A stretch of DNA of 64,000 bases from an uncultured Acidimicrobiia bacterium (GCA_964195405.1 CAXMPK010000119.1:13075-77074); one strand, 5' to 3'. Positions 16,056 to 24,522 are shown, counted from the first letter of the stretch. Translations and numbers: made by a program. Notes: a model not told the origin generated them from the sequence alone.

Positions 16056-17519
16056 TCAGGAGACAGTGTCCTCACTGATCTGGAGTGTCTTCAGGTCGGA
16101 ATGGAAATCGAGTGCGTAGTCGCCGCCTTCACGTCCGATTCCCGAAATGCCACAGCCGCCAAACGGAGCGGTTAGGTCTCGGACCAGATATGTGTTGACC
16201 CAGACGGTTCCGGCGCGAATCCCGGCGCCGGTCCGTTGCGCCCTTTGCTCCGACCCTGTGTAGACAATTCCCGAGAGGCCGTATGCGGTTGAATTGGCGA
16301 GAGCGATGGCCTCTGTCTCATCCTCAAATGTTTGATAGGTGAGCACCGGCCCAAAAACCTCTCGTTGCACGATTTCGGACTGATTCGACTTTGGCATGAT
16401 GAGCGTTGGCTCATACCAGAGACCATCGTCCTTCCAGCGTTCACCGCCCCGCATGATTCGGTCGCCGGCCCCGCGAGCCCGGTTGACAAATCCCTCGACT
16501 CTCTTGAGATGGTCGGGGTGAATCATCGGCGAGATTGTCGTTGTGGGGTGGCGACTGTCTCCGAGGACGTGCTCGTCGGTGTATTGGTTGAACAGCTCCA
16601 AGAACTTTCCGGACACCGACTTCTCGACCAGTAGACGGGTGCCGGCGATACAGGTTTGGCCGGAGTCGTCGTACTGACCTGCCGCCTTTCTCGCGGCTGC
16701 TTCGAGGTCTGAGTCGGCAAAGACGATCAGAGGCCCCTTGCCACCCAGCTCCGCGGTGAAGGGTGTGATGTTCCTGGCGGCGGCCACACCGATGTGGCGA
16801 GCCGTCTCTGGTGACCCGGTAAAAGAGATTCGTCTCACCCTCTTGTCGCCCACCAGGGCGGCTCCGACCTCATCGCCGATGCCATGCACGATGTTGAGGA
16901 CACCTGGGGGCAATCCTGCCTTGTCAGCCAGGTCGGCGAGGATCGATGCGGAGAGGGGTGACCATTCTGCGGGCTTGAGAATCACAGGGTTTCCAGCGGC
17001 AAGAGCGGGAGCAAGTTTCCATATCGACAGAAGCCAGGGCGCGTTCCAGGGGGTGATGATCACCGCAGGCCCGGCAGCCATCCGCTGCACTTGATTGTTG
17101 GTTCCCTTTGAGGACCAGGATCTTCCTTGGTAATTCGCAGCGAGGTTTGCGTAGTTGCGGAGGTTCTCAGCCCCGCGGTGAATCACCCGTGCCTGGAGAC
17201 TCTCCAACAGCATCGCCATGTCGACACATTCGACGGTGGCCAACTCATCGATGTTCTCGTCGATCAAATCCGCGAGATGATGCAGATACTCGGCCCGCTT
17301 CTCAGGCCTCTGCGCCGCCCATGAGGGAAAGGCATCGACGGCGGCACTTATGGCCGCATCGGCGGTGAGGGCATCACCACGGGCCATGTCGGCGAGCTTC
17401 CAATCCCAGTCGAGTGGAGAGCGGACCTCGAAGGTTTTTTCGGACGAGACTCGCTTCCCACCGATGTAGTGATCAGGTGAGACAGCAACGTCAGATATCT
17501 CCGCTCGGGACGATGGCAA
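16056..17519 (-). CDS. NAD(P)-dependent aldehyde dehydrogenase
   Basis: ALDH motifs ITPWNAPW, FTGSPETAR and the catalytic Cys region QTCIAGTRLLV. Confidence 0.85.
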   Translation of the reverse strand: MPSSRAEISDVAVSPDHYIGGKRVSSEKTFEVRSPLDWDWKLADMARGDALTADAAISAAVDAFPSWAAQRPEKRAEYLHHLADLIDENIDELATVECVDMAMLLESLQARVIHRGAENLRNYANLAANYQGRSWSSKGTNNQVQRMAAGPAVIITPWNAPWLLSIWKLAPALAAGNPVILKPAEWSPLSASILADLADKAGLPPGVLNIVHGIGDEVGAALVGDKRVRRISFTGSPETARHIGVAAARNITPFTAELGGKGPLIVFADSDLEAAARKAAGQYDDSGQTCIAGTRLLVEKSVSGKFLELFNQYTDEHVLGDSRHPTTTISPMIHPDHLKRVEGFVNRARGAGDRIMRGGERWKDDGLWYEPTLIMPKSNQSEIVQREVFGPVLTYQTFEDETEAIALANSTAYGLSGIVYTGSEQRAQRTGAGIRAGTVWVNTYLVRDLTAPFGGCGISGIGREGGDYALDFHSDLKTLQISEDTVS

Positions 17520-17579
17520 AAAGGACTCCAGGTCGTTAGCTACCTAAGGATAAGCTGATGGTGTGAACCTGAGAAGACG

Positions 17580-18125
17580 ATGCCCCGACCGCTGACCGAT
17601 CACGACCCTGGAGTGGTGTTGGAGGCCGAGCGTGACATTCGGATCCGACTGGGAGACCGCCCCCTCGATTTCGAGGCGCTTCTTGCAGTTTCCAATATCT
17701 ACCGGGCGGCCAACGCGGTACGTCATCGCATGGAGCGTGATGTCCTGGCTCCCGTCGGTCTCAGTTGGGGCGGCTTCACCATCCTTTTTGTCTTGTGGGT
17801 GTGGGGTGACCGCGAGACGGGTGATCTCGCAGAGGATTGTGGCCTGGCAAAAGGCACTTTGTCAGGAATGTTGCGGACCCTGGAACGGACGAGTCTGGTG
17901 TCGCGGTCGAGACATCTCGATGATGGGCGCAAGGTGATGGTTCACCTCGCATCATCGGGTTTGGAGACCATCGAAGAGGTGTTTCCCCGTTTCAATGAGT
18001 TCGAGACAAAACTCACCACCAGCCTTGATTCGGACGAACGTCATGAATTGGCGCGACTGCTCCGGCTGGTCACTGCCACCGCCGACGAACTTCCTCTCGT
18101 TACGGAGGGTCGAAAACAACGATGA
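17580..18125 (+). CDS. MarR family transcriptional regulator
   Basis: Winged-helix region GDLAEDCGLAKGTLSGMLRTLERTSLVSRSRHLDDGR. Divergent from the ALDH gene. Confidence 0.75.
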   Translation: MPRPLTDHDPGVVLEAERDIRIRLGDRPLDFEALLAVSNIYRAANAVRHRMERDVLAPVGLSWGGFTILFVLWVWGDRETGDLAEDCGLAKGTLSGMLRTLERTSLVSRSRHLDDGRKVMVHLASSGLETIEEVFPRFNEFETKLTTSLDSDERHELARLLRLVTATADELPLVTEGRKQR

Positions 18126-18170
18126 GAAGGAGATACAACGATGAGAAGGAGATTCAACGATGGGTGAGAT
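18117..18170 (+). repeat. Tandem 19-bp duplication CAACGATGAGAAGGAGAT(A/T) x2, plus a partial third copy containing the dioxygenase start
   Basis: Direct repeat seen in the sequence. Each copy carries a Shine-Dalgarno sequence (AAGGAG) and an ATG, giving ATGs at 18122, 18141 and 18160 in all three frames. Confidence 0.6.
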
Positions 18171-19035
18171 AGTCGGTGCCGGCCTGATCAGCCATGCCCC
18201 CACAATCATGTTCGATGAGGCGACACGGCGTGAGCTCAACGATGACAAGGAGATCAGCCTGGTCCCTGGTCTTGTCCGGCTTCGGGATCAAGTGTTTGAT
18301 CGGCTCCAGCCGGATGCGATGGTCATTGTCGACTCCCACTGGTTCACCACCGTTGAGCATGTGCTGTCAGCTCATTCTCGCCGTCAGGGGCACATGACAT
18401 CTTCCGAACTTCCCAGAGGGATGGCAGGGATCCCGTACGATTACCCGGGCGATCCCGAGTTGGCGCATCTCGCGGCCGATCTGGGCAAGGAGCTGGGCAC
18501 GCCGACACATGCCAGCGAAGATGACTATCTCCCGGTCTACTACGCAAGCGTCAACCTGGTGCACTATCTCCACCGGGACGAAAAAGTTGTATCGGTTTCC
18601 GTGGTTCAGACCGGTGAACCGGACGACTTCTTGACGATGGGCGAGGCGATTGGCGAGGCTGTGTCGCGGCTAGACCGTCGCGTTGTTGTGCTGGCTTCGG
18701 GCGGAATGAGTCATACTTTTTGGCGTCTCAAGCAGATCCACAAACACGAGGCATCAGACCCGGTCCACATAATCACACCTGAGGCCCGCGCCGCCGACGA
18801 GCTTCGTGTCGACTGGATGCGACAGGGTGACCATCAGCAGATCGTCGACTCGATGGATGACTACAAGCAGTACAACCCCGAAGGCGATTTCGGGCACTAC
18901 CTCATGATGCTGGGAGCAATCGGCGGGGCCGAATGCACTGCTCCCGGAGAGCTCTTCTCCGACTATGAGAATGCGACGGGTACAGGACAGGTTCACGTCT
19001 GGTTCGAGCGACCCGAAGGCGGTTGGACCGTCTAA
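18160..19035 (+). CDS. class III extradiol ring-cleavage dioxygenase (LigB family)
   Basis: N-terminal ISHAPTIMF, and His-containing motifs VIVDSHWF and GGMSHTF typical of LigB/DODA-type dioxygenases. Confidence 0.7.
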   Translation: MGEIVGAGLISHAPTIMFDEATRRELNDDKEISLVPGLVRLRDQVFDRLQPDAMVIVDSHWFTTVEHVLSAHSRRQGHMTSSELPRGMAGIPYDYPGDPELAHLAADLGKELGTPTHASEDDYLPVYYASVNLVHYLHRDEKVVSVSVVQTGEPDDFLTMGEAIGEAVSRLDRRVVVLASGGMSHTFWRLKQIHKHEASDPVHIITPEARAADELRVDWMRQGDHQQIVDSMDDYKQYNPEGDFGHYLMMLGAIGGAECTAPGELFSDYENATGTGQVHVWFERPEGGWTV

Positions 19036-19071
19036 CCCGGAACCGACCCCTGTCCGTGGCACAATCTGTGG

Positions 19072-20499
19072 GTGGTCGCAGTAAGAAGCTCCACGGGTCT
19101 CGTTGATGACTTAGATCGTCTCGCGCTGGCTTTGGAAAGCCTCGATCTGAGAACGGCTTCGATTCGCGGCAAGGAATCGGACTCCAAGAGGGATCAACTC
19201 GTCCGGACGATTCGATCGTATGTCGTTCCTCGCCTGAGCGATCCCACGACGCCGTTGTGTGTGGTTTTTACCGGGCCGACCGGTTCAGGTAAATCCACTC
19301 TGGTCAACAGCATTTCGGGGCACAAAGTATCCGAAACAGGTCCGGTAAGACCGACCACCACCGCACCAGTTGTGCTCGCCTCGCTAGCGAATCGGGATCG
19401 TCTCCAGAGGCTGGGGGGTGTCGAGTGCGAGGTAGTGGAAGGTGCCGCTCCAATACTCGACATGGTGGCTCTCGTCGATACGCCCGACATTGATTCCACT
19501 TCGACTGAGCATCGAGCAACAGCCGAAGCGTTGATAGACAGTGCGGACGTCGTTGTCTTCGTGACGTCCACGCTTCGTTATGCCGATCTGGTGCCGTGGG
19601 AGGTCCTCCGCCGAGCCGTGTCACGTGGAGCGCCGGTCATCAATGTGCTCAATCGCTACAGCAGTTCCTCGGCCGGGGCTTATGTCGACTTCAGAAGCTT
19701 GCTCTCCGCTGAAGGCTTGACCTCCGACGTTGTCCGGGTTCCCGAGCATCATCTTGATAGTGATGCTCATTCGGTCCCTTCTCTTGCAGTCAAGGAGCTG
19801 GCTCGGCGTCTTGTCGATGTCGCCCGTGATCGAAGGCGTTATCAACAGGAGGTCCTCGATCAGGTGTTGGCCTCATTGGTTGCTCAGAGTGAGGATTTGG
19901 TCGACAGTGTGAATGACGATCGACGTTGGCTGGGTGATCGTGAAGCAGAGCTGCGATTTGGTTTTGCCAACTCCGCAATCGATCTCGACCTCTCGGGCGT
20001 CGTCGACGACATCGTCTTTGGTTTCCCGAGTGGAGCCTCGGCCCGCCGTAAGAGACGCTGGCTGCGTCGTGCCCAGGTCGAGATGGTTGCGATCGATCGC
20101 ATCGTTGCCGCTGTCGATGCAGATATTCGCTCACGGGGTCTGAGTGATGGCGATCTTCGCGAGATGATCGCCGAAACCATTCCCCGCTGGCTCGGCTACA
20201 CCCGTCGTGTCGTCGAGGAGGCAGACGTTGTGTCCTCTGAGTTGGCGTGTTCGGTTCTTGTTTGTTCCGCCATTGGCCTACGGGATCCTCAGTTGGAAAT
20301 GTTCGTCCTCGGTGATGACTCAGATCGCCTCGTAGCCAGAGCCCGGCGCGAATTGGTCGACCGACTCCAAGTCATCTACACCCACTGTGGAGAGCGGTTG
20401 GTCGATCGACTGGAGACCGAGGCCGGTGAGCCCGATGCGGACGATCTCGCGGATCGAATGTCATTCGTCGTTGCGAGGTCGCATTTCGCCGATGCGTGA
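19072..20499 (+). CDS. dynamin-like / P-loop GTPase family protein (paralog 1)
   Basis: G1 GPTGSGKST, G2 RPTTT, G3-like LVDTPDID, G4-like NVLNRY. 475 aa with a helical C-terminal part. Confidence 0.6.
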   Translation: MVAVRSSTGLVDDLDRLALALESLDLRTASIRGKESDSKRDQLVRTIRSYVVPRLSDPTTPLCVVFTGPTGSGKSTLVNSISGHKVSETGPVRPTTTAPVVLASLANRDRLQRLGGVECEVVEGAAPILDMVALVDTPDIDSTSTEHRATAEALIDSADVVVFVTSTLRYADLVPWEVLRRAVSRGAPVINVLNRYSSSSAGAYVDFRSLLSAEGLTSDVVRVPEHHLDSDAHSVPSLAVKELARRLVDVARDRRRYQQEVLDQVLASLVAQSEDLVDSVNDDRRWLGDREAELRFGFANSAIDLDLSGVVDDIVFGFPSGASARRKRRWLRRAQVEMVAIDRIVAAVDADIRSRGLSDGDLREMIAETIPRWLGYTRRVVEEADVVSSELACSVLVCSAIGLRDPQLEMFVLGDDSDRLVARARRELVDRLQVIYTHCGERLVDRLETEAGEPDADDLADRMSFVVARSHFADA

Positions 20500-21718
20500 C
20501 GCGTTGGGCGAGATTCTCGACAAAACCGATATCGTCGTCGCTTCCTGTCGAAACGTCGTGGCCGATAAAGACCTCGAGAGTTTCGCTCGGGCTGCACGAA
20601 ACGTCAGAGCTCGGCTGAGTTTCCCCCCAGATCTGGTGGTGGCGGTCCTGGCCGGTGGGACCGGATCGGGCAAGTCCAGCATTTTCAACGTGATTGCAGG
20701 CGAGGAAGTATCAGACGTCGGGGGTGTCCGCCCCACAACCAGCACACCGCTGGCGATTGTTGCGCTCGATCGAGTTGGCGTCATGGATGGATTTCTCCGA
20801 GAGCTTGATATCGAGGTGCGTCCAGTGGCCGGCGTCCCGACGTGGTTGGTCTTGATCGATCTACCCGATATCGACAGCGTCGAGATGGATCATCGGCTTC
20901 AGGTCGAGGCGTTACTCCCGCGGGTCGACGTCATTGTCTGGGTCTCAGATCCTGAGAAGTACCGAGATGCCGTGTTTCATGACCGGTTTGTCAAGCCGCT
21001 CGCCGCTTACGCCTCCCGGATGCAGTTCGTTCTCAACCAAGCAGATCGGATTCCATACGGCTCCGTCGATGAAGTCCTCGCAGATTTCACCAGAGCACTC
21101 CGTGAGGACGGAATAGATGAGCCGCACCCCATCGCGACTGTTGCTGATCCGCCGTCGGGTCCGCCAGAAGGCATTGAGGTTCTGATTGCTGCGTTGGAAA
21201 CGATGACCGACGCCCCGCAGGGCGTGTATTCGAAACTGGTGATCGATCTGGAACGTGCTGTTGCCGTCTTGGACACAGTTGTTGGAGGTGGGGGAGTCAA
21301 TTTCGCCCATCGCTTCGGTGAAGTGATCAGCGACGCCGCGGAGATGGTGGTTGATGATCAGGGCGATGCTGCCGTATCAGCCTTGACTCGTTTCGTTGAG
21401 GGTCTGGCGACCGAGGCCGGAGGGCCGGTCGGTGATGAGATTCGCCTGGTGGCTGTGGCTATTCCCGGTGCGGTGGTGAGCGCCAGCGAATCGTTGACCA
21501 AGGCAATGGTCGAGCACCGCAAGGCACTTCCAAGGATCAGATGGAGCGAGAAGGGCGACACGATGGAACGGGAGCCCAAACTGGCCATGGCCAGCGAGCA
21601 GCTGGTCGAGACGCTGGGGCCGCCACTACGCAAGACGCTCTCCCGACGTGCCGATGCCACTGCGGCGCTCGCCGATTTGTCGCTGTCGTTGACGTCTAGA
21701 GCCGCGGGTCACCGGTAA
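20492..21718 (+). CDS. dynamin-like / P-loop GTPase family protein (paralog 2)
   Basis: G1 GGTGSGKSS, G2 RPTTS, G3-like LIDLPDID, G4 LNQAD. The start at MRDALGE overlaps the upstream stop as ATGCGTGA. Confidence 0.6.
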   Translation: MRDALGEILDKTDIVVASCRNVVADKDLESFARAARNVRARLSFPPDLVVAVLAGGTGSGKSSIFNVIAGEEVSDVGGVRPTTSTPLAIVALDRVGVMDGFLRELDIEVRPVAGVPTWLVLIDLPDIDSVEMDHRLQVEALLPRVDVIVWVSDPEKYRDAVFHDRFVKPLAAYASRMQFVLNQADRIPYGSVDEVLADFTRALREDGIDEPHPIATVADPPSGPPEGIEVLIAALETMTDAPQGVYSKLVIDLERAVAVLDTVVGGGGVNFAHRFGEVISDAAEMVVDDQGDAAVSALTRFVEGLATEAGGPVGDEIRLVAVAIPGAVVSASESLTKAMVEHRKALPRIRWSEKGDTMEREPKLAMASEQLVETLGPPLRKTLSRRADATAALADLSLSLTSRAAGHR

Positions 21719-21731
21719 TCTCTCGTCGCTC

Positions 21732-22541
21732 ATGAGTGATGCTCTCGTCGAAAGCCTGATCCGCAGCGTGGTGGTAGTGGCTATCGCCATAATCGCCTAC
21801 TTTCTATTGGTTCGGGTGGGTAGGCGTCTGGTCGACAACTACGCCGCCAAATCCGGAAAGGAAACCGGCAAAAGAATCGTCACCCTCTGGCGAGTGATGA
21901 GACGGATCGTGCTCGTGATCGTGATCCTCACGGCCATCCTGGTCCTGTTTGGAGTCTGGGGATTCAGCATTGCGCCGTTCTTGGCGGTGGGTACGGTTTT
22001 TGCCGCCGCGGTGGGGTTTGGCGCCCAGGATCTGGTCAAGGATTTCATCGCTGGCTTCTTCATCTTGGTCGAGGACCAATTTGCTATGGGTGACACCGTC
22101 ACAATTGCCGGTGTTACCGGAACTGTCGAGGACATCCAGCTCCGGGTGACGGTGTTACGTGACCTCGAGGGCAATCAGCTGTTTGTCCCCAATGGGCAGG
22201 TCGTTGTCACCACCAACTTCACCAGTGCGTACGCCAAACCGGTGATCGATGTCGGCATCTCATATGAGACGGATGTCGATCGGGCCCTCGCCATTCTCAA
22301 GGACGAGCTCGATGCTCTGGCCTCCGATCCTGCCTGGACCGGTCGCATCTCTGGCGAGTCGGAGATCATGGGTGTCAACGAACTGGGGGATTCGGCTGTT
22401 GTGTTACGAGCCCGTCTTGTCACTGACGCCAATGAGCGTTGGACGGTGAGGCGGGAGGCTCTTCGACGGGTCAAGAATCGATTTGATGCTGAGGGCATTT
22501 CGATCCCGTTCCCCCAGGTCACGGTGCATCGGGCCGACTAG
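21732..22541 (+). CDS. mechanosensitive ion channel (MscS) family protein
   Basis: Three TM helices followed by the MscS beta-domain (GDTVTIAGVTGTVEDIQLRVTVLRDLEGNQLFVPNGQ). Confidence 0.8.
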   Translation: MSDALVESLIRSVVVVAIAIIAYFLLVRVGRRLVDNYAAKSGKETGKRIVTLWRVMRRIVLVIVILTAILVLFGVWGFSIAPFLAVGTVFAAAVGFGAQDLVKDFIAGFFILVEDQFAMGDTVTIAGVTGTVEDIQLRVTVLRDLEGNQLFVPNGQVVVTTNFTSAYAKPVIDVGISYETDVDRALAILKDELDALASDPAWTGRISGESEIMGVNELGDSAVVLRARLVTDANERWTVRREALRRVKNRFDAEGISIPFPQVTVHRAD

Positions 22542-22551
22542 CGACACACCG

Positions 22552-23469
22552 TTAATTTCCCACAACTCTCAACGATTCGGCGTTCCACTCAACGACGGCC
22601 GCGTCGACCATCCCAAGTGATTCTCCGTCGGCCTGAACCGCGACCGGTGGGTCTGCTTTCAGTTCGAGAATCTTGACAGCCTCCCAAACCTCAACCTCGT
22701 TGACCGCCGACAGGGAGCGCTTGGTAAGGGCGTTGACGGCGATTTGGGGGATACGTCGTCTCCGCAGCCGTTCTAGAACGAGGGCCGTCATTGGGTTGGG
22801 CTGCTCAGAGGTGAATGTGATCGGGATCTTACCGAAATAGGTGTAGACATCGCGGAACTGGATCAAAGCGGCTGTCCCCACAGCCGATCGGTCTCCTGCG
22901 AGTATTTCGAGATGGGGTCGGCGCGACGGAAATGTCTTTATACCAACGCCGATGGCAGATCGGGCGTAGTGGATGGAGCCGAAACGGTATTTTCTGTAGG
23001 GATCTCGATCGGCCTCGATCACGATCTCAGCGTCGAGCCCAAATCCGCAGGCAAATATGGCGTGATGAACGCTCTCGGTCGCCCCGCGTGTGAGTGTCAT
23101 GGCGGCGACACCTATGACCCTGGGTGGCGATGGTGTACCGATTATCCGGGCCGCCTTCGACGCCCGTCCAGGCAGGCCTAGGAGTCTGGCGATGACATTG
23201 GTGGTTCCCACCGGAATGATCCCGAGTGTCGATTCCGATCCAATCAGCGCTTGGGCTACGTGATGGACCATTCCATCACCACCCATTGCCACGACGATGG
23301 ACACTTCGTCTTTGACCGCGGCGCGAGCGGTTTCGGTTGCTTCAGAAGCAGATCCCGGCCAAATGGCGTCAACCTCATGTGTTTTGGACAACGTCGACAT
23401 AACGTCGCGGTGGGAGCCGCCCGTGAACTGTGACGCCACCGGGTTGGCGATGACTACAAGTCGATCCAT
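22552..23469 (-). CDS. diacylglycerol kinase catalytic-domain lipid kinase (YegS/BmrU family)
   Basis: VVIANPVASQ...IVVAMGGDGMVHHV...IIPVGTTN motifs. The start is trimmed to MDRLVV. The ORF-track upstream extension is presumably non-coding. Confidence 0.7.
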   Translation of the reverse strand: MDRLVVIANPVASQFTGGSHRDVMSTLSKTHEVDAIWPGSASEATETARAAVKDEVSIVVAMGGDGMVHHVAQALIGSESTLGIIPVGTTNVIARLLGLPGRASKAARIIGTPSPPRVIGVAAMTLTRGATESVHHAIFACGFGLDAEIVIEADRDPYRKYRFGSIHYARSAIGVGIKTFPSRRPHLEILAGDRSAVGTAALIQFRDVYTYFGKIPITFTSEQPNPMTALVLERLRRRRIPQIAVNALTKRSLSAVNEVEVWEAVKILELKADPPVAVQADGESLGMVDAAVVEWNAESLRVVGN

Positions 23470-23505
23470 TGGCCCGGCAGAGTACAGCGGTAGCCTTCCT
23501 GCCCG

Positions 23506-24522
23506 ATGAGTGTCATTCCTGACGACCACGAAGACATCCCTGCCAGCGATACCGCAGTCGAAGCGGGCGAAGGCGAGCCCCTCTTTTCCCTGGTTGCCGG
23601 TGAGGGCAACGGTTTCCTGCTCGGTGTTGCCGCCGGTGATGCGGCCGGTGGCGCATTCGAACTGGGCTATTCGGCAGTGACCGAACAGGTCACCGTCCTC
23701 TCGTACCAGCTGATCGATCATCGTCATCTCGACCCGACAATCGTTGTCCGAAGGATCAGAGAACTTGACGGCTCGGAGGACGAAGGCAACGTTTACAGGT
23801 CAGAAACTCCGCACTTTCGGAGTTGGCTTGATCGAGCTGCCGCTGGCTCGGCTGTGCCGGAGGAGGAGTCCTCTTCGGACGGCATCGCCCGCTCTGTCGC
23901 GCTGGGCGTGGCTTTTCGCAATGATCCCAGAGCCCTCGTCGATCAGGCTGTGAGCCTCGGGCGTCTCTTCCATCGTGATGCGGGCAGTGTGGCCGCTGGC
24001 GTCATTTCGGCAGCAGCCGTTGCCGCGTCGTGTTTTGGGCAAACCGGCCGTGACCTGGTGATAGGTGTGGCTGAGGCCGTCGTTCCCGCGATTCCCGAGA
24101 TCGTTGTTGAGATGACAGGCGCCGAACGGCTCAACAATCTCGAGAAAGAGTTCTCGGACTTGGAAGACTCAGTGGGAGTGAGAACAAGTCAGCAGGCGAT
24201 GGCGTTGATGGGCGATGGAACCGGTGATCCGGTACAGCAGGCCATGGCCGGAGTGCTTCTCGCCGCGCCCATGGATGAGGTGTACCACAGTCCCGTTGAG
24301 CAGGCAGCCCTAATCGGCGGCAGTGTTCTAGGTGCGGCCGTCGGGGCCATTGTTGGCGCCCGGATCGGTATTCGCGCCTGGCCTTGGGCTTTCCCCAACG
24401 ACACTTGGTTTGCCGAGATAGGTCGCCGGCTGGTCAGTGGCCCAAACGAGACCCGTGATCTTCCGATTCCGTATGCGGTGGAGCAGCACCTCATGTCGGG
24501 ATCTCGTCCGGGCTTTCACTGA
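23506..24522 (+). CDS. ADP-ribosylglycohydrolase family protein
   Basis: GVAAGDAAGGAFE metal-binding motif, with Gly/Ala-rich helices throughout. Divergent from the lipid kinase gene. Confidence 0.65.
   Translation: MSVIPDDHEDIPASDTAVEAGEGEPLFSLVAGEGNGFLLGVAAGDAAGGAFELGYSAVTEQVTVLSYQLIDHRHLDPTIVVRRIRELDGSEDEGNVYRSETPHFRSWLDRAAAGSAVPEEESSSDGIARSVALGVAFRNDPRALVDQAVSLGRLFHRDAGSVAAGVISAAAVAASCFGQTGRDLVIGVAEAVVPAIPEIVVEMTGAERLNNLEKEFSDLEDSVGVRTSQQAMALMGDGTGDPVQQAMAGVLLAAPMDEVYHSPVEQAALIGGSVLGAAVGAIVGARIGIRAWPWAFPNDTWFAEIGRRLVSGPNETRDLPIPYAVEQHLMSGSRPGFH

Follow-up and report, generated by a model that had tools for sequence, protein, structure and literature searches.

Within a 64,000-nucleotide stretch of DNA from an uncultured Acidimicrobiia bacterium (GCA_964195405.1, CAXMPK010000119.1:13075-77074; hereafter the window), two tandem plus-strand genes that an earlier reading of the sequence (the original prediction) had described as dynamin-like GTPases were analyzed together with the gene that follows them. 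The first, a dynA-like gene (open reading frame 1, ORF1; 19072..20499), starts with GTG and encodes a protein of 475 amino acids (aa) consisting of N-terminal helices, a G domain at approximately residues 58-235, and a helical stalk. The second, a dynB-like gene (ORF2; 20492..21718), starts with the ATG at 20492 and encodes 408 aa with no transmembrane hairpin. The third (21732..22541, plus strand) encodes a 269-aa protein of the MscS family of mechanosensitive channels, and the 13 nt between the end of dynB at 21718 and the start of mscS at 21732 agree with the spacing given originally.

The two GTPase genes overlap by the 8 nt ATGCGTGA (20492..20499, plus strand) that had been noted before, in which the dynB start is followed by the dynA stop codon TGA (20497-20499), the whole junction reading ...GCCGATGCGTGAC.... 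Of the two protein sizes originally proposed, 475 aa was retained for ORF1, whose homologues likewise start MVAVR, but 443 aa was replaced for ORF2. The mechanical 443-aa frame starts at the GTG at 20387 and would overlap ORF1 by 113 nt, whereas approximately 120 ORF2 homologues are 376-415 aa long and every one starts MRD or MHD; since these lengths and starts agree and the 8-nt overlap implies the same start, the ORF2 product is taken as 408 aa from 20492. Overlaps of 4 or 8 nt between dynA and dynB, present at almost all junctions inspected, were also found in twelve loci of Streptomyces-type, Micrococcaceae, and other lineages (L002, L005, L007, L009, L010, L014, L015, L021, L024, L031, L032, and L033), and the junction in L004 has a 3-nt gap and no overlap. 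In the window (20485-20499), L002, and L005, the sequence GATGCGTGA encodes both the DynA-like C-terminus (F-A-D-A-stop) and the DynB-like N-terminus (M-R/H-D), and the final Ala of the DynA-like C-terminus was invariant in 21/21 sequences. Because the bases of this junction are shared, conservation of both ends may partly reflect a dual-coding constraint rather than selection at the protein level.

ORF1 and ORF2 are true paralogues, sharing 37% identity over 163 aa (BLASTP, E=1e-20). Both scored above the cut-off of the Pfam model Dynamin_N (45 bits for ORF1 and 32 bits for ORF2; cut-off 27), and AlphaFold2 (AF2) models built from the family alignments (pLDDT 86.8 for ORF1 and 89.0 for ORF2) comprised in both cases N-terminal helices, a Ras-like G domain, and a long helical stalk of approximately 240 residues. 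Foldseek comparison of the models with the PDB returned BDLP (2j69, E=6.7e-11) and IniA (6j72, 3e-10) for ORF1, and IniA (6j72, 1.6e-9), with MFN2 and EHD2 also among the top matches, for ORF2. Mitofusins, Fzo1, EHD2/4, Drp1, and the Campylobacter DLP1/2 (Cj-DLP1/2) pair were recovered by both proteins, and the top matches all belonged to the dynamin superfamily. The TM-scores were low (0.3-0.47), and the fold class is therefore common to these structures but the conformation and length are not. As modeled, both proteins are members of the dynamin superfamily, with a predicted G domain flanked by helical bundle(s), and the dynamin-like assignment proposed earlier holds on the side of both the Pfam model and the predicted folds.

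The generic G-domain model MMR_HSR1 also exceeded its threshold of 21.9 bits in both proteins (37 bits for ORF1 and 25 bits for ORF2), and weak NCBIfam matches to HydF, Der, and Era were recorded, which would be expected if both were housekeeping small GTPases of the Era/EngA/HydF type with extra helices. This is very improbable, as the NCBIfam scores reached 14-29 bits against cut-offs of 116-325, a helical stalk is predicted in each protein, and comparison of the full-length folds leads to BDLP, IniA, mitofusin, and EHD rather than to Era/Der. An Era/EngA identity of the pair was rejected on these NCBIfam scores and the dynamin-like Foldseek matches.

When the family profile and the G3-G4 segment were searched against PDB sequences, the similarity found was at the level of the P-loop only. 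The closest relatives were proteins of Acidimicrobiia metagenome-assembled genomes (MAGs) annotated as 'GTPase', 'dynamin family protein', or, wrongly, 'EcfA2', and many members of the family are mis-annotated in public records as 'energy-coupling factor transporter ATP-binding protein EcfA2', 'ABC transporter', or 'EngB/Era'. The ORF1-family profile retrieved 5347 representatives at E<=1e-3 and 642 at E<=1e-30, the more distant of which were 550-710 aa long. One of the latter, from a Micrococcaceae bacterium, was annotated 'dynamin family protein', a label that cultured Micrococcaceae relatives also carry, and hundreds of Arthrobacter and Pseudarthrobacter proteins fall in the same group. The names obtained for 20 distant cluster representatives included Micrococcaceae only and no Streptomyces, and a further homologue search likewise returned Micrococcaceae only. 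A scan of genome contigs based on the family alignment, with the generic P-loop GPTGSGKST as one of its two patterns, confirmed one locus (L001, at a contig end).

The dynAB genes of Streptomyces were recognized by translating published primers (Table S2 of bioRxiv 10.1101/2025.06.23.661029) and then scanning metagenomes. According to these primers, dynA starts V-V-T-L-D-V/E-R, carries the P-loop STGAGK(74)STLVNSLVG, and ends SVLQKER, its junction with dynB being a GTGA overlap, and the DynB P-loop reads TVIAIAGATGSGK(129)STLFNALAGVPVSE (bioRxiv 10.1101/2025.06.23.661029). Scanning with a degenerate nucleotide pattern of the DynB P-loop yielded 23 high-GC metagenome loci. Among the loci compared, L024 agreed with the S. 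coelicolor primers at 21/21 positions of the dynA start and 22/22 of the dynA end, with 1-2 mismatches in the flanking 'confirm' primers, and L017 agreed with the S. venezuelae dynA-start primer at 20/20 positions; the DynB of S. venezuelae is vnz_12105. The DynA of L024 has 535 aa with the P-loop Lys at residue 74, matching the published position. The Micrococcaceae-type locus L007 derives from a MAG named 'Micrococcaceae bacterium' (JASGEI010000020.1) with a G+C content of 38.7%, which is unusually low for Micrococcaceae.

The comparison with these reference proteins separated the two families reciprocally. The ORF1-family profile scored 184-197 bits against the DynA-type proteins of Streptomyces and Micrococcaceae and 81-85 bits against DynB-type proteins, whereas the ORF2-family profile scored 195-198 bits against DynB-type and 63-64 bits against DynA-type proteins. 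Likewise, in BLASTP searches ORF1 was closer to DynA (40% identity, E=3e-32) than to DynB (E=8e-17), and ORF2 was closer to DynB (36% identity, E=3e-39) than to DynA (E=2e-16). By these scores, ORF1 is very likely the DynA and ORF2 the DynB of Acidimicrobiia, orthologous to the dynamin-like pair known from actinobacteria, and among the paired bacterial dynamin-like systems that the original prediction had named as examples, DynA/DynB is the one that the reciprocal profile scores single out. It follows from the reciprocal profile and BLASTP scores that the DynA/DynB duplication is older than the divergence of Acidimicrobiia from the classical actinomycetes, an age that fits the published spread of DynB orthologues, which are widespread among unicellular actinobacteria (PMC8748795). 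Against the assignment, identity to the Streptomyces proteins is only approximately 36-40% and falls mostly within the G domain and the initial helices of the stalk. ORF2 also has no counterpart of the two-segment transmembrane anchor that helps to define Streptomyces DynB and through which SepX is bound as well. Since this anchor is absent in Acidimicrobiia DynB, the mode of localization, and possibly the function, may differ from those in Streptomyces. With these reservations, two Acidimicrobiia genes annotated as 'GTPase / ABC transporter / EcfA2' gain definite names, DynA and DynB, and a role, open to experiment, at the membrane or the site of division.

The nucleotide-binding motifs of both proteins translated as originally described (GxTGSGKS P-loop, RPTT, D-x-P-D-I-D, LNRY, and NQAD). 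In the DynA-like protein, the G1/P-loop GPTGSGKST (19273..19299, with Lys74) is invariant across the family, the G2/switch I motif RPTT (19348..19359) was found in 234/234 DynA-type proteins, the G3 variant DTPDIDS (19477..19497) carries Asp139 in place of the Gly of the canonical DxxG, and the G4 variant LNRYS (19648..19662; N-R-x-S) is missing the guanine-specifying Asp. In the DynB-like protein, translation and the family alignment placed the G1/P-loop GGTGSGKSS (with Lys61) at 20654..20680, the G2 motif RPTT at 20729..20740, the G3 variant DLPDIDS at 20858..20878, and the G4 motif LNQADR (N-Q-x-D, with the Asp kept) at 21032..21049, all of these motifs being on the plus strand. Thus, the P-loops and switch-I threonines are intact in both subunits, but the canonical DxxG is found in neither (DTPD in ORF1 and DLPD in ORF2), and the canonical G4 N/T-K-x-D, which confers guanine specificity, is not found in ORF1 (N-R-Y-S) and is only partly kept in ORF2 (N-Q-A-D, with the Asp kept and the Lys lost). 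The register of these motifs was supported by the ORF1 AF2 model, in which DTPDIDS comes after the beta-strand 132-136, and by the alignment of the GTPase Der, in which N-K-L-D falls on LNRYS of ORF1.

Motif counts over 234 DynA-type and 122 DynB-type proteins aligned to their profiles revealed a G3 of the form D-x-P-D in 233/234 of the former and D-[LM]-P-D-x-D-S in 122/122 of the latter, which removes the concern that DxPD might be an alignment artefact, and no DxPG was found among approximately 130 family representatives inspected. The Streptomyces proteins carry DAPDIDS (DynA) and DLPDHDS (DynB), as also seen directly in their sequences. At G4, DynA-type proteins have N-R-x-x, or D-R-V-x in the Streptomyces and Micrococcaceae proteins, so that the guanine-specifying Asp is missing, and DynB-type proteins have N-Q-x-D. 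On these alignments, the DxPDxDS form of G3 and the asymmetry of G4 are hallmarks of the whole DynA/DynB family rather than of this locus, and the 'atypical nucleotide chemistry' proposed for the pair, if real, would not be peculiar to it, as it would apply equally to the experimentally studied Streptomyces proteins. The family signature (G3 DxPDxDS in both subunits; G4 N/D-R-x-x in DynA and N-Q-x-D in DynB) was derived in the present analysis, and to our knowledge it is not drawn from any published definition. No discussion of the G3 motif in DynA/DynB in the Streptomyces sense was found in the literature searched, the original 2017 DynAB paper lying outside that search. An Asp at a switch-II position that is otherwise a near-universal Gly, in every DynA/DynB, merits experiments in the tractable Streptomyces system, as does the retention of the guanine-specifying Asp by DynB only. 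In addition, of the predicted proteins P0379 (1166 aa, from a soil read catalogue) and P0343 (705 aa), one combines two G domains in a single chain, one of DynA type (DAPDIDS) and one of DynB type (DLPDFDS). It represents either a natural DynA-DynB fusion, comparable to the two-headed DynA of B. subtilis or the engineered Dyn[AB], or an artefact of a frameshift or of assembly.

The loss of the membrane anchor extends beyond the window. No 19-residue segment with a hydrophobicity of >=1.6 was detected in ORF2, and no conserved hydrophobic segment was detected in 23 Acidimicrobiia DynB homologues or in six syntenic partners. The Acidimicrobiia DynB proteins are 376-408 aa long, and those of L007, L032, and L024 are 534-695 aa long, with two clear transmembrane segments in L007 and L032 and a hydrophobic hairpin in L024. 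Regarding the membrane element typical of the dynamin superfamily (paddle, PH domain, or transmembrane segment), no conserved hydrophobic segment was identified in either ORF1 or ORF2, and amphipathic peripheral binding is conceivable. It was also observed that longer DynA-type proteins outside Acidimicrobiia (P0297, P0312, P0314, P0317, and P0350) have a Gly/Ala-rich hydrophobic stretch in the stalk, GVNAAxVxxxxAxFAxTGGLTGAEVGVxAG, which may represent a membrane-binding paddle and is absent in the 475-aa Acidimicrobiia form. The locus is thus a reduced, anchorless variant of a known, experimentally studied family and not a new system.

The neighborhood of the pair was compared across loci. 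The third gene matched the Pfam models MS_channel_2nd (PF00924, 73 bits) and MS_channel_3rd (PF21082, 44 bits) above their cut-offs, PF21088 (18 bits) below its cut-off, and NCBIfam MscS models at up to 172 bits, below the equivalog cut-offs; having both the beta-domain and the C-terminal domain, its predicted product is an MscS-family channel, as first described. Upstream of dynA, separated from it by 36 nt, lies a LigB-family (extradiol dioxygenase-like) gene (18160..19035, plus strand), assigned by the Pfam LigB model on the syntenic genes. The order LigB, dynA, dynB, and mscS followed by a convergent DAGK gene was found in L002, L003 (partial), L004, L005, L006, L034, L035, and L036, in which the relatives of ORF1 share 44-47% identity with it, and mscS lies 12-32 nt downstream of dynB on the same strand in the window and in the Acidimicrobiia loci examined (L003 partial). 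These genes are part of a conserved block of approximately 15 genes, which includes upstream a PLP decarboxylase, a GlnA-like protein, ADC, an optional Na/H exchanger, an aldehyde dehydrogenase, and an optional MarR, and downstream an optional ADP-ribosylglycohydrolase, MFS, ADH, and an aminotransferase. The identity of the syntenic proteins to their window copies was 79-83% for LigB, 72-75% for MarR, 62-68% for MscS, 50-56% for DAGK, and 44-56% for the GTPases. As the neighbors in the block are more conserved than the GTPases, the adjacency of dynB and mscS is explicable by shared ancestry alone.

Several side features of this neighborhood were recorded. In the window (17580-22541) and in L002-L006 and L034-L036, MarR, LigB, dynA, dynB, and mscS are all on the plus strand with gaps of 13-36 nt and could be transcribed as a single unit; L034 and L036 keep the LigB-dynA-dynB-mscS core but have no MarR. 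On the minus strand of the window, the mechanical DAGK-like frame at 22552-23727 encodes 391 aa, whereas its syntenic homologues have 305-312 aa, and the true start is therefore probably internal (near MDRLVVIANP…). With such a start, the divergent ADP-ribosylglycohydrolase gene at 23506-24522 (plus strand) would no longer appear to overlap it by 220 nt.

Outside Acidimicrobiia the association with mscS was not observed, as no MscS match was found in loci L007-L033, which represent Micrococcaceae (L007), the Streptomyces type (L008-L030), and other lineages. In L007, dynAB has uvrB immediately upstream and an acyltransferase gene (Acyl_transf_3) and two ABC exporters downstream, and its dynA overlaps by 8 nt with the second dynamin-like gene, whose product has two strong transmembrane segments, as reported for Streptomyces DynB (PMC8748795); in L032, dynAB is followed by a convergent DJ-1 gene. 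The idea that the anchorless DynA/DynB and MscS form a dedicated membrane-stress module, in which the pair docks on or is controlled by the channel and tension is coupled to dynamin-like repair or remodeling rather than to division, draws on the same-strand position of mscS beside dynB in every Acidimicrobiia locus inspected, on the persistence of the LigB-dynA-dynB-mscS core despite the variable presence of MarR, the Na/H exchanger, the GlnA-like gene, and the ADP-ribosylglycohydrolase, on the exact coincidence of the clade with mscS next door and the clade with DynB devoid of transmembrane segments, and on the role of other bacterial dynamin-like proteins, e.g., B. subtilis DynA, in membrane-damage responses (PMC12998192). 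It is nevertheless rather unlikely, given that the whole neighborhood of approximately 15 genes is syntenic with neighbors more conserved than the GTPases, that no MscS gene accompanies dynAB in L007-L033, and that dynB and mscS show neither overlap nor coupling signal, the promoter and terminator scan of 17400-22800 being at chance level and thus uninformative. No literature dealing with a DynA/DynB pair together with mechanosensitive channels was found. Most probably, mscS is merely a co-oriented, perhaps co-transcribed, neighbor inside a conserved block, and a functional link between DynAB and MscS appears unlikely; the conserved functional partnership that had been suggested for the channel is not borne out, since the adjacency is confined to Acidimicrobiia and to this syntenic block.

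The same context bears on the resemblance to the two-GTPase anti-phage defence system Eleos (LeoA/LeoBC) that had also been pointed out. LeoA-type proteins are dynamin-like too, and PADLOC matched ORF1 to LeoBC (25 bits) and LeoA (23 bits) and ORF2 to LeoA (15 bits). However, these partial matches span only the P-loop/G3 part, approximately 80-150 positions of models with 559 and 601 positions, the orthology to DynA/DynB is far stronger (184-198 bits), and the genes reside in a stable chromosomal, metabolic block across an order-level range of genomes instead of a variable defence island. An Eleos-type function of the pair is thus highly unlikely, and the proposed likeness was dropped.

For the favored DynA/DynB assignment, a working scheme can be outlined by analogy with Streptomyces, where DynB recruits DynA and the pair stabilizes or modulates FtsZ rings and acts on septum formation (PMC8748795; bioRxiv 10.1101/2025.06.23.661029). 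FtsZ-dependent localization at the septum is a further trait of the actinobacterial DynA/DynB family. Translational coupling at the gene overlap would lead to the DynA-like and DynB-like proteins being made in a fixed proportion, and the two would associate through their G domains in a nucleotide-dependent manner. In Streptomyces, the recruitment of DynA by DynB needs the GTP-binding (P-loop) ability of both proteins, and the P-loop mutants K74A and K129A indicate that GTP binding modulates the DynA-DynB interaction and function (bioRxiv 10.1101/2025.06.23.661029). The Acidimicrobiia pair would similarly act at the membrane and divisome, but with no transmembrane segments left in its DynB, and no counterpart in its DynA of the hydrophobic stretch of longer relatives, targeting would have to be supplied by a partner protein or by peripheral binding. 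A bolder combination, in which the anchorless DynA/DynB docks on the co-transcribed MscS or another membrane protein and thereby wires tension sensing to a dynamin-like machine, and in which DynA-type subunits are not conventional GTP hydrolases (binding only, or using another nucleotide) and the heterodimer is an asymmetric switch, seems improbable; its second element derives from the family-wide Gly-to-Asp change in G3 and the missing specificity Asp.

These findings overturn no current understanding, and their interest lies in the family-wide peculiarities of G3 and G4 and in a DynB naturally devoid of transmembrane segments. Similar to the mycobacterial IniA/IniC, the present genes encode an actinobacterial dynamin-like pair in one operon, and IniA was the first or second fold match of both proteins. 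However, the structural-alignment identity to IniA was 13-18%, IniA was not among the best 60 of 160 PDB sequence matches of the family profile (E<=1), and IniA, which mediates membrane fission, has the canonical DxxG; IniA/IniC is a separate lineage of dynamin-like proteins. The combination of a G domain with helical bundles is shared with Nostoc BDLP, Campylobacter DLP1/DLP2, and the mitofusins, but these proteins have 590-700 aa compared with 408-475 aa here, and the Acidimicrobiia pair has no paddle or hydrophobic membrane-insertion tip and carries Asp in place of the G3 Gly. The EHD ATPases, a precedent for an ATP-using member of the dynamin superfamily, share the dynamin-like fold according to Foldseek, but the present proteins have neither an EH domain nor a sequence-level relationship to them. 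Heterotypic pairing of operon-encoded dynamin-like proteins, a further parallel with the BDLP-mitofusin class, has been described (PMC6104087).

The closest parallel is with Streptomyces DynA/DynB, in which the gene order (dynA followed by dynB, with overlapping stop and start), the P-loop lysine of the first protein at residue 74, the G3 DxPDxDS of both subunits, and a DynA without the specificity Asp next to a DynB with N-Q-x-D are all the same. The differences are that DynA has 475 aa here and 535 aa in Streptomyces, that its G4 reads N-R-Y-S instead of D-R-V-P, that ORF2 has no equivalent of the long N-terminal extension found in Streptomyces DynB, that an MscS neighbor is present only here, and that the host, unlike Streptomyces, is presumably unicellular and non-sporulating. 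Furthermore, Streptomyces DynB has two transmembrane segments, needed for SepX binding, and interacts with SepX, DynA, SepF2, and SsgB, whereas ORF2, at 408 aa, has none (PMC8748795 for Streptomyces). Engineered DynB without its transmembrane segments loses SepX binding (PMC8748795), and the natural anchorless DynB of Acidimicrobiia thus offers a ready comparison for this engineered form.

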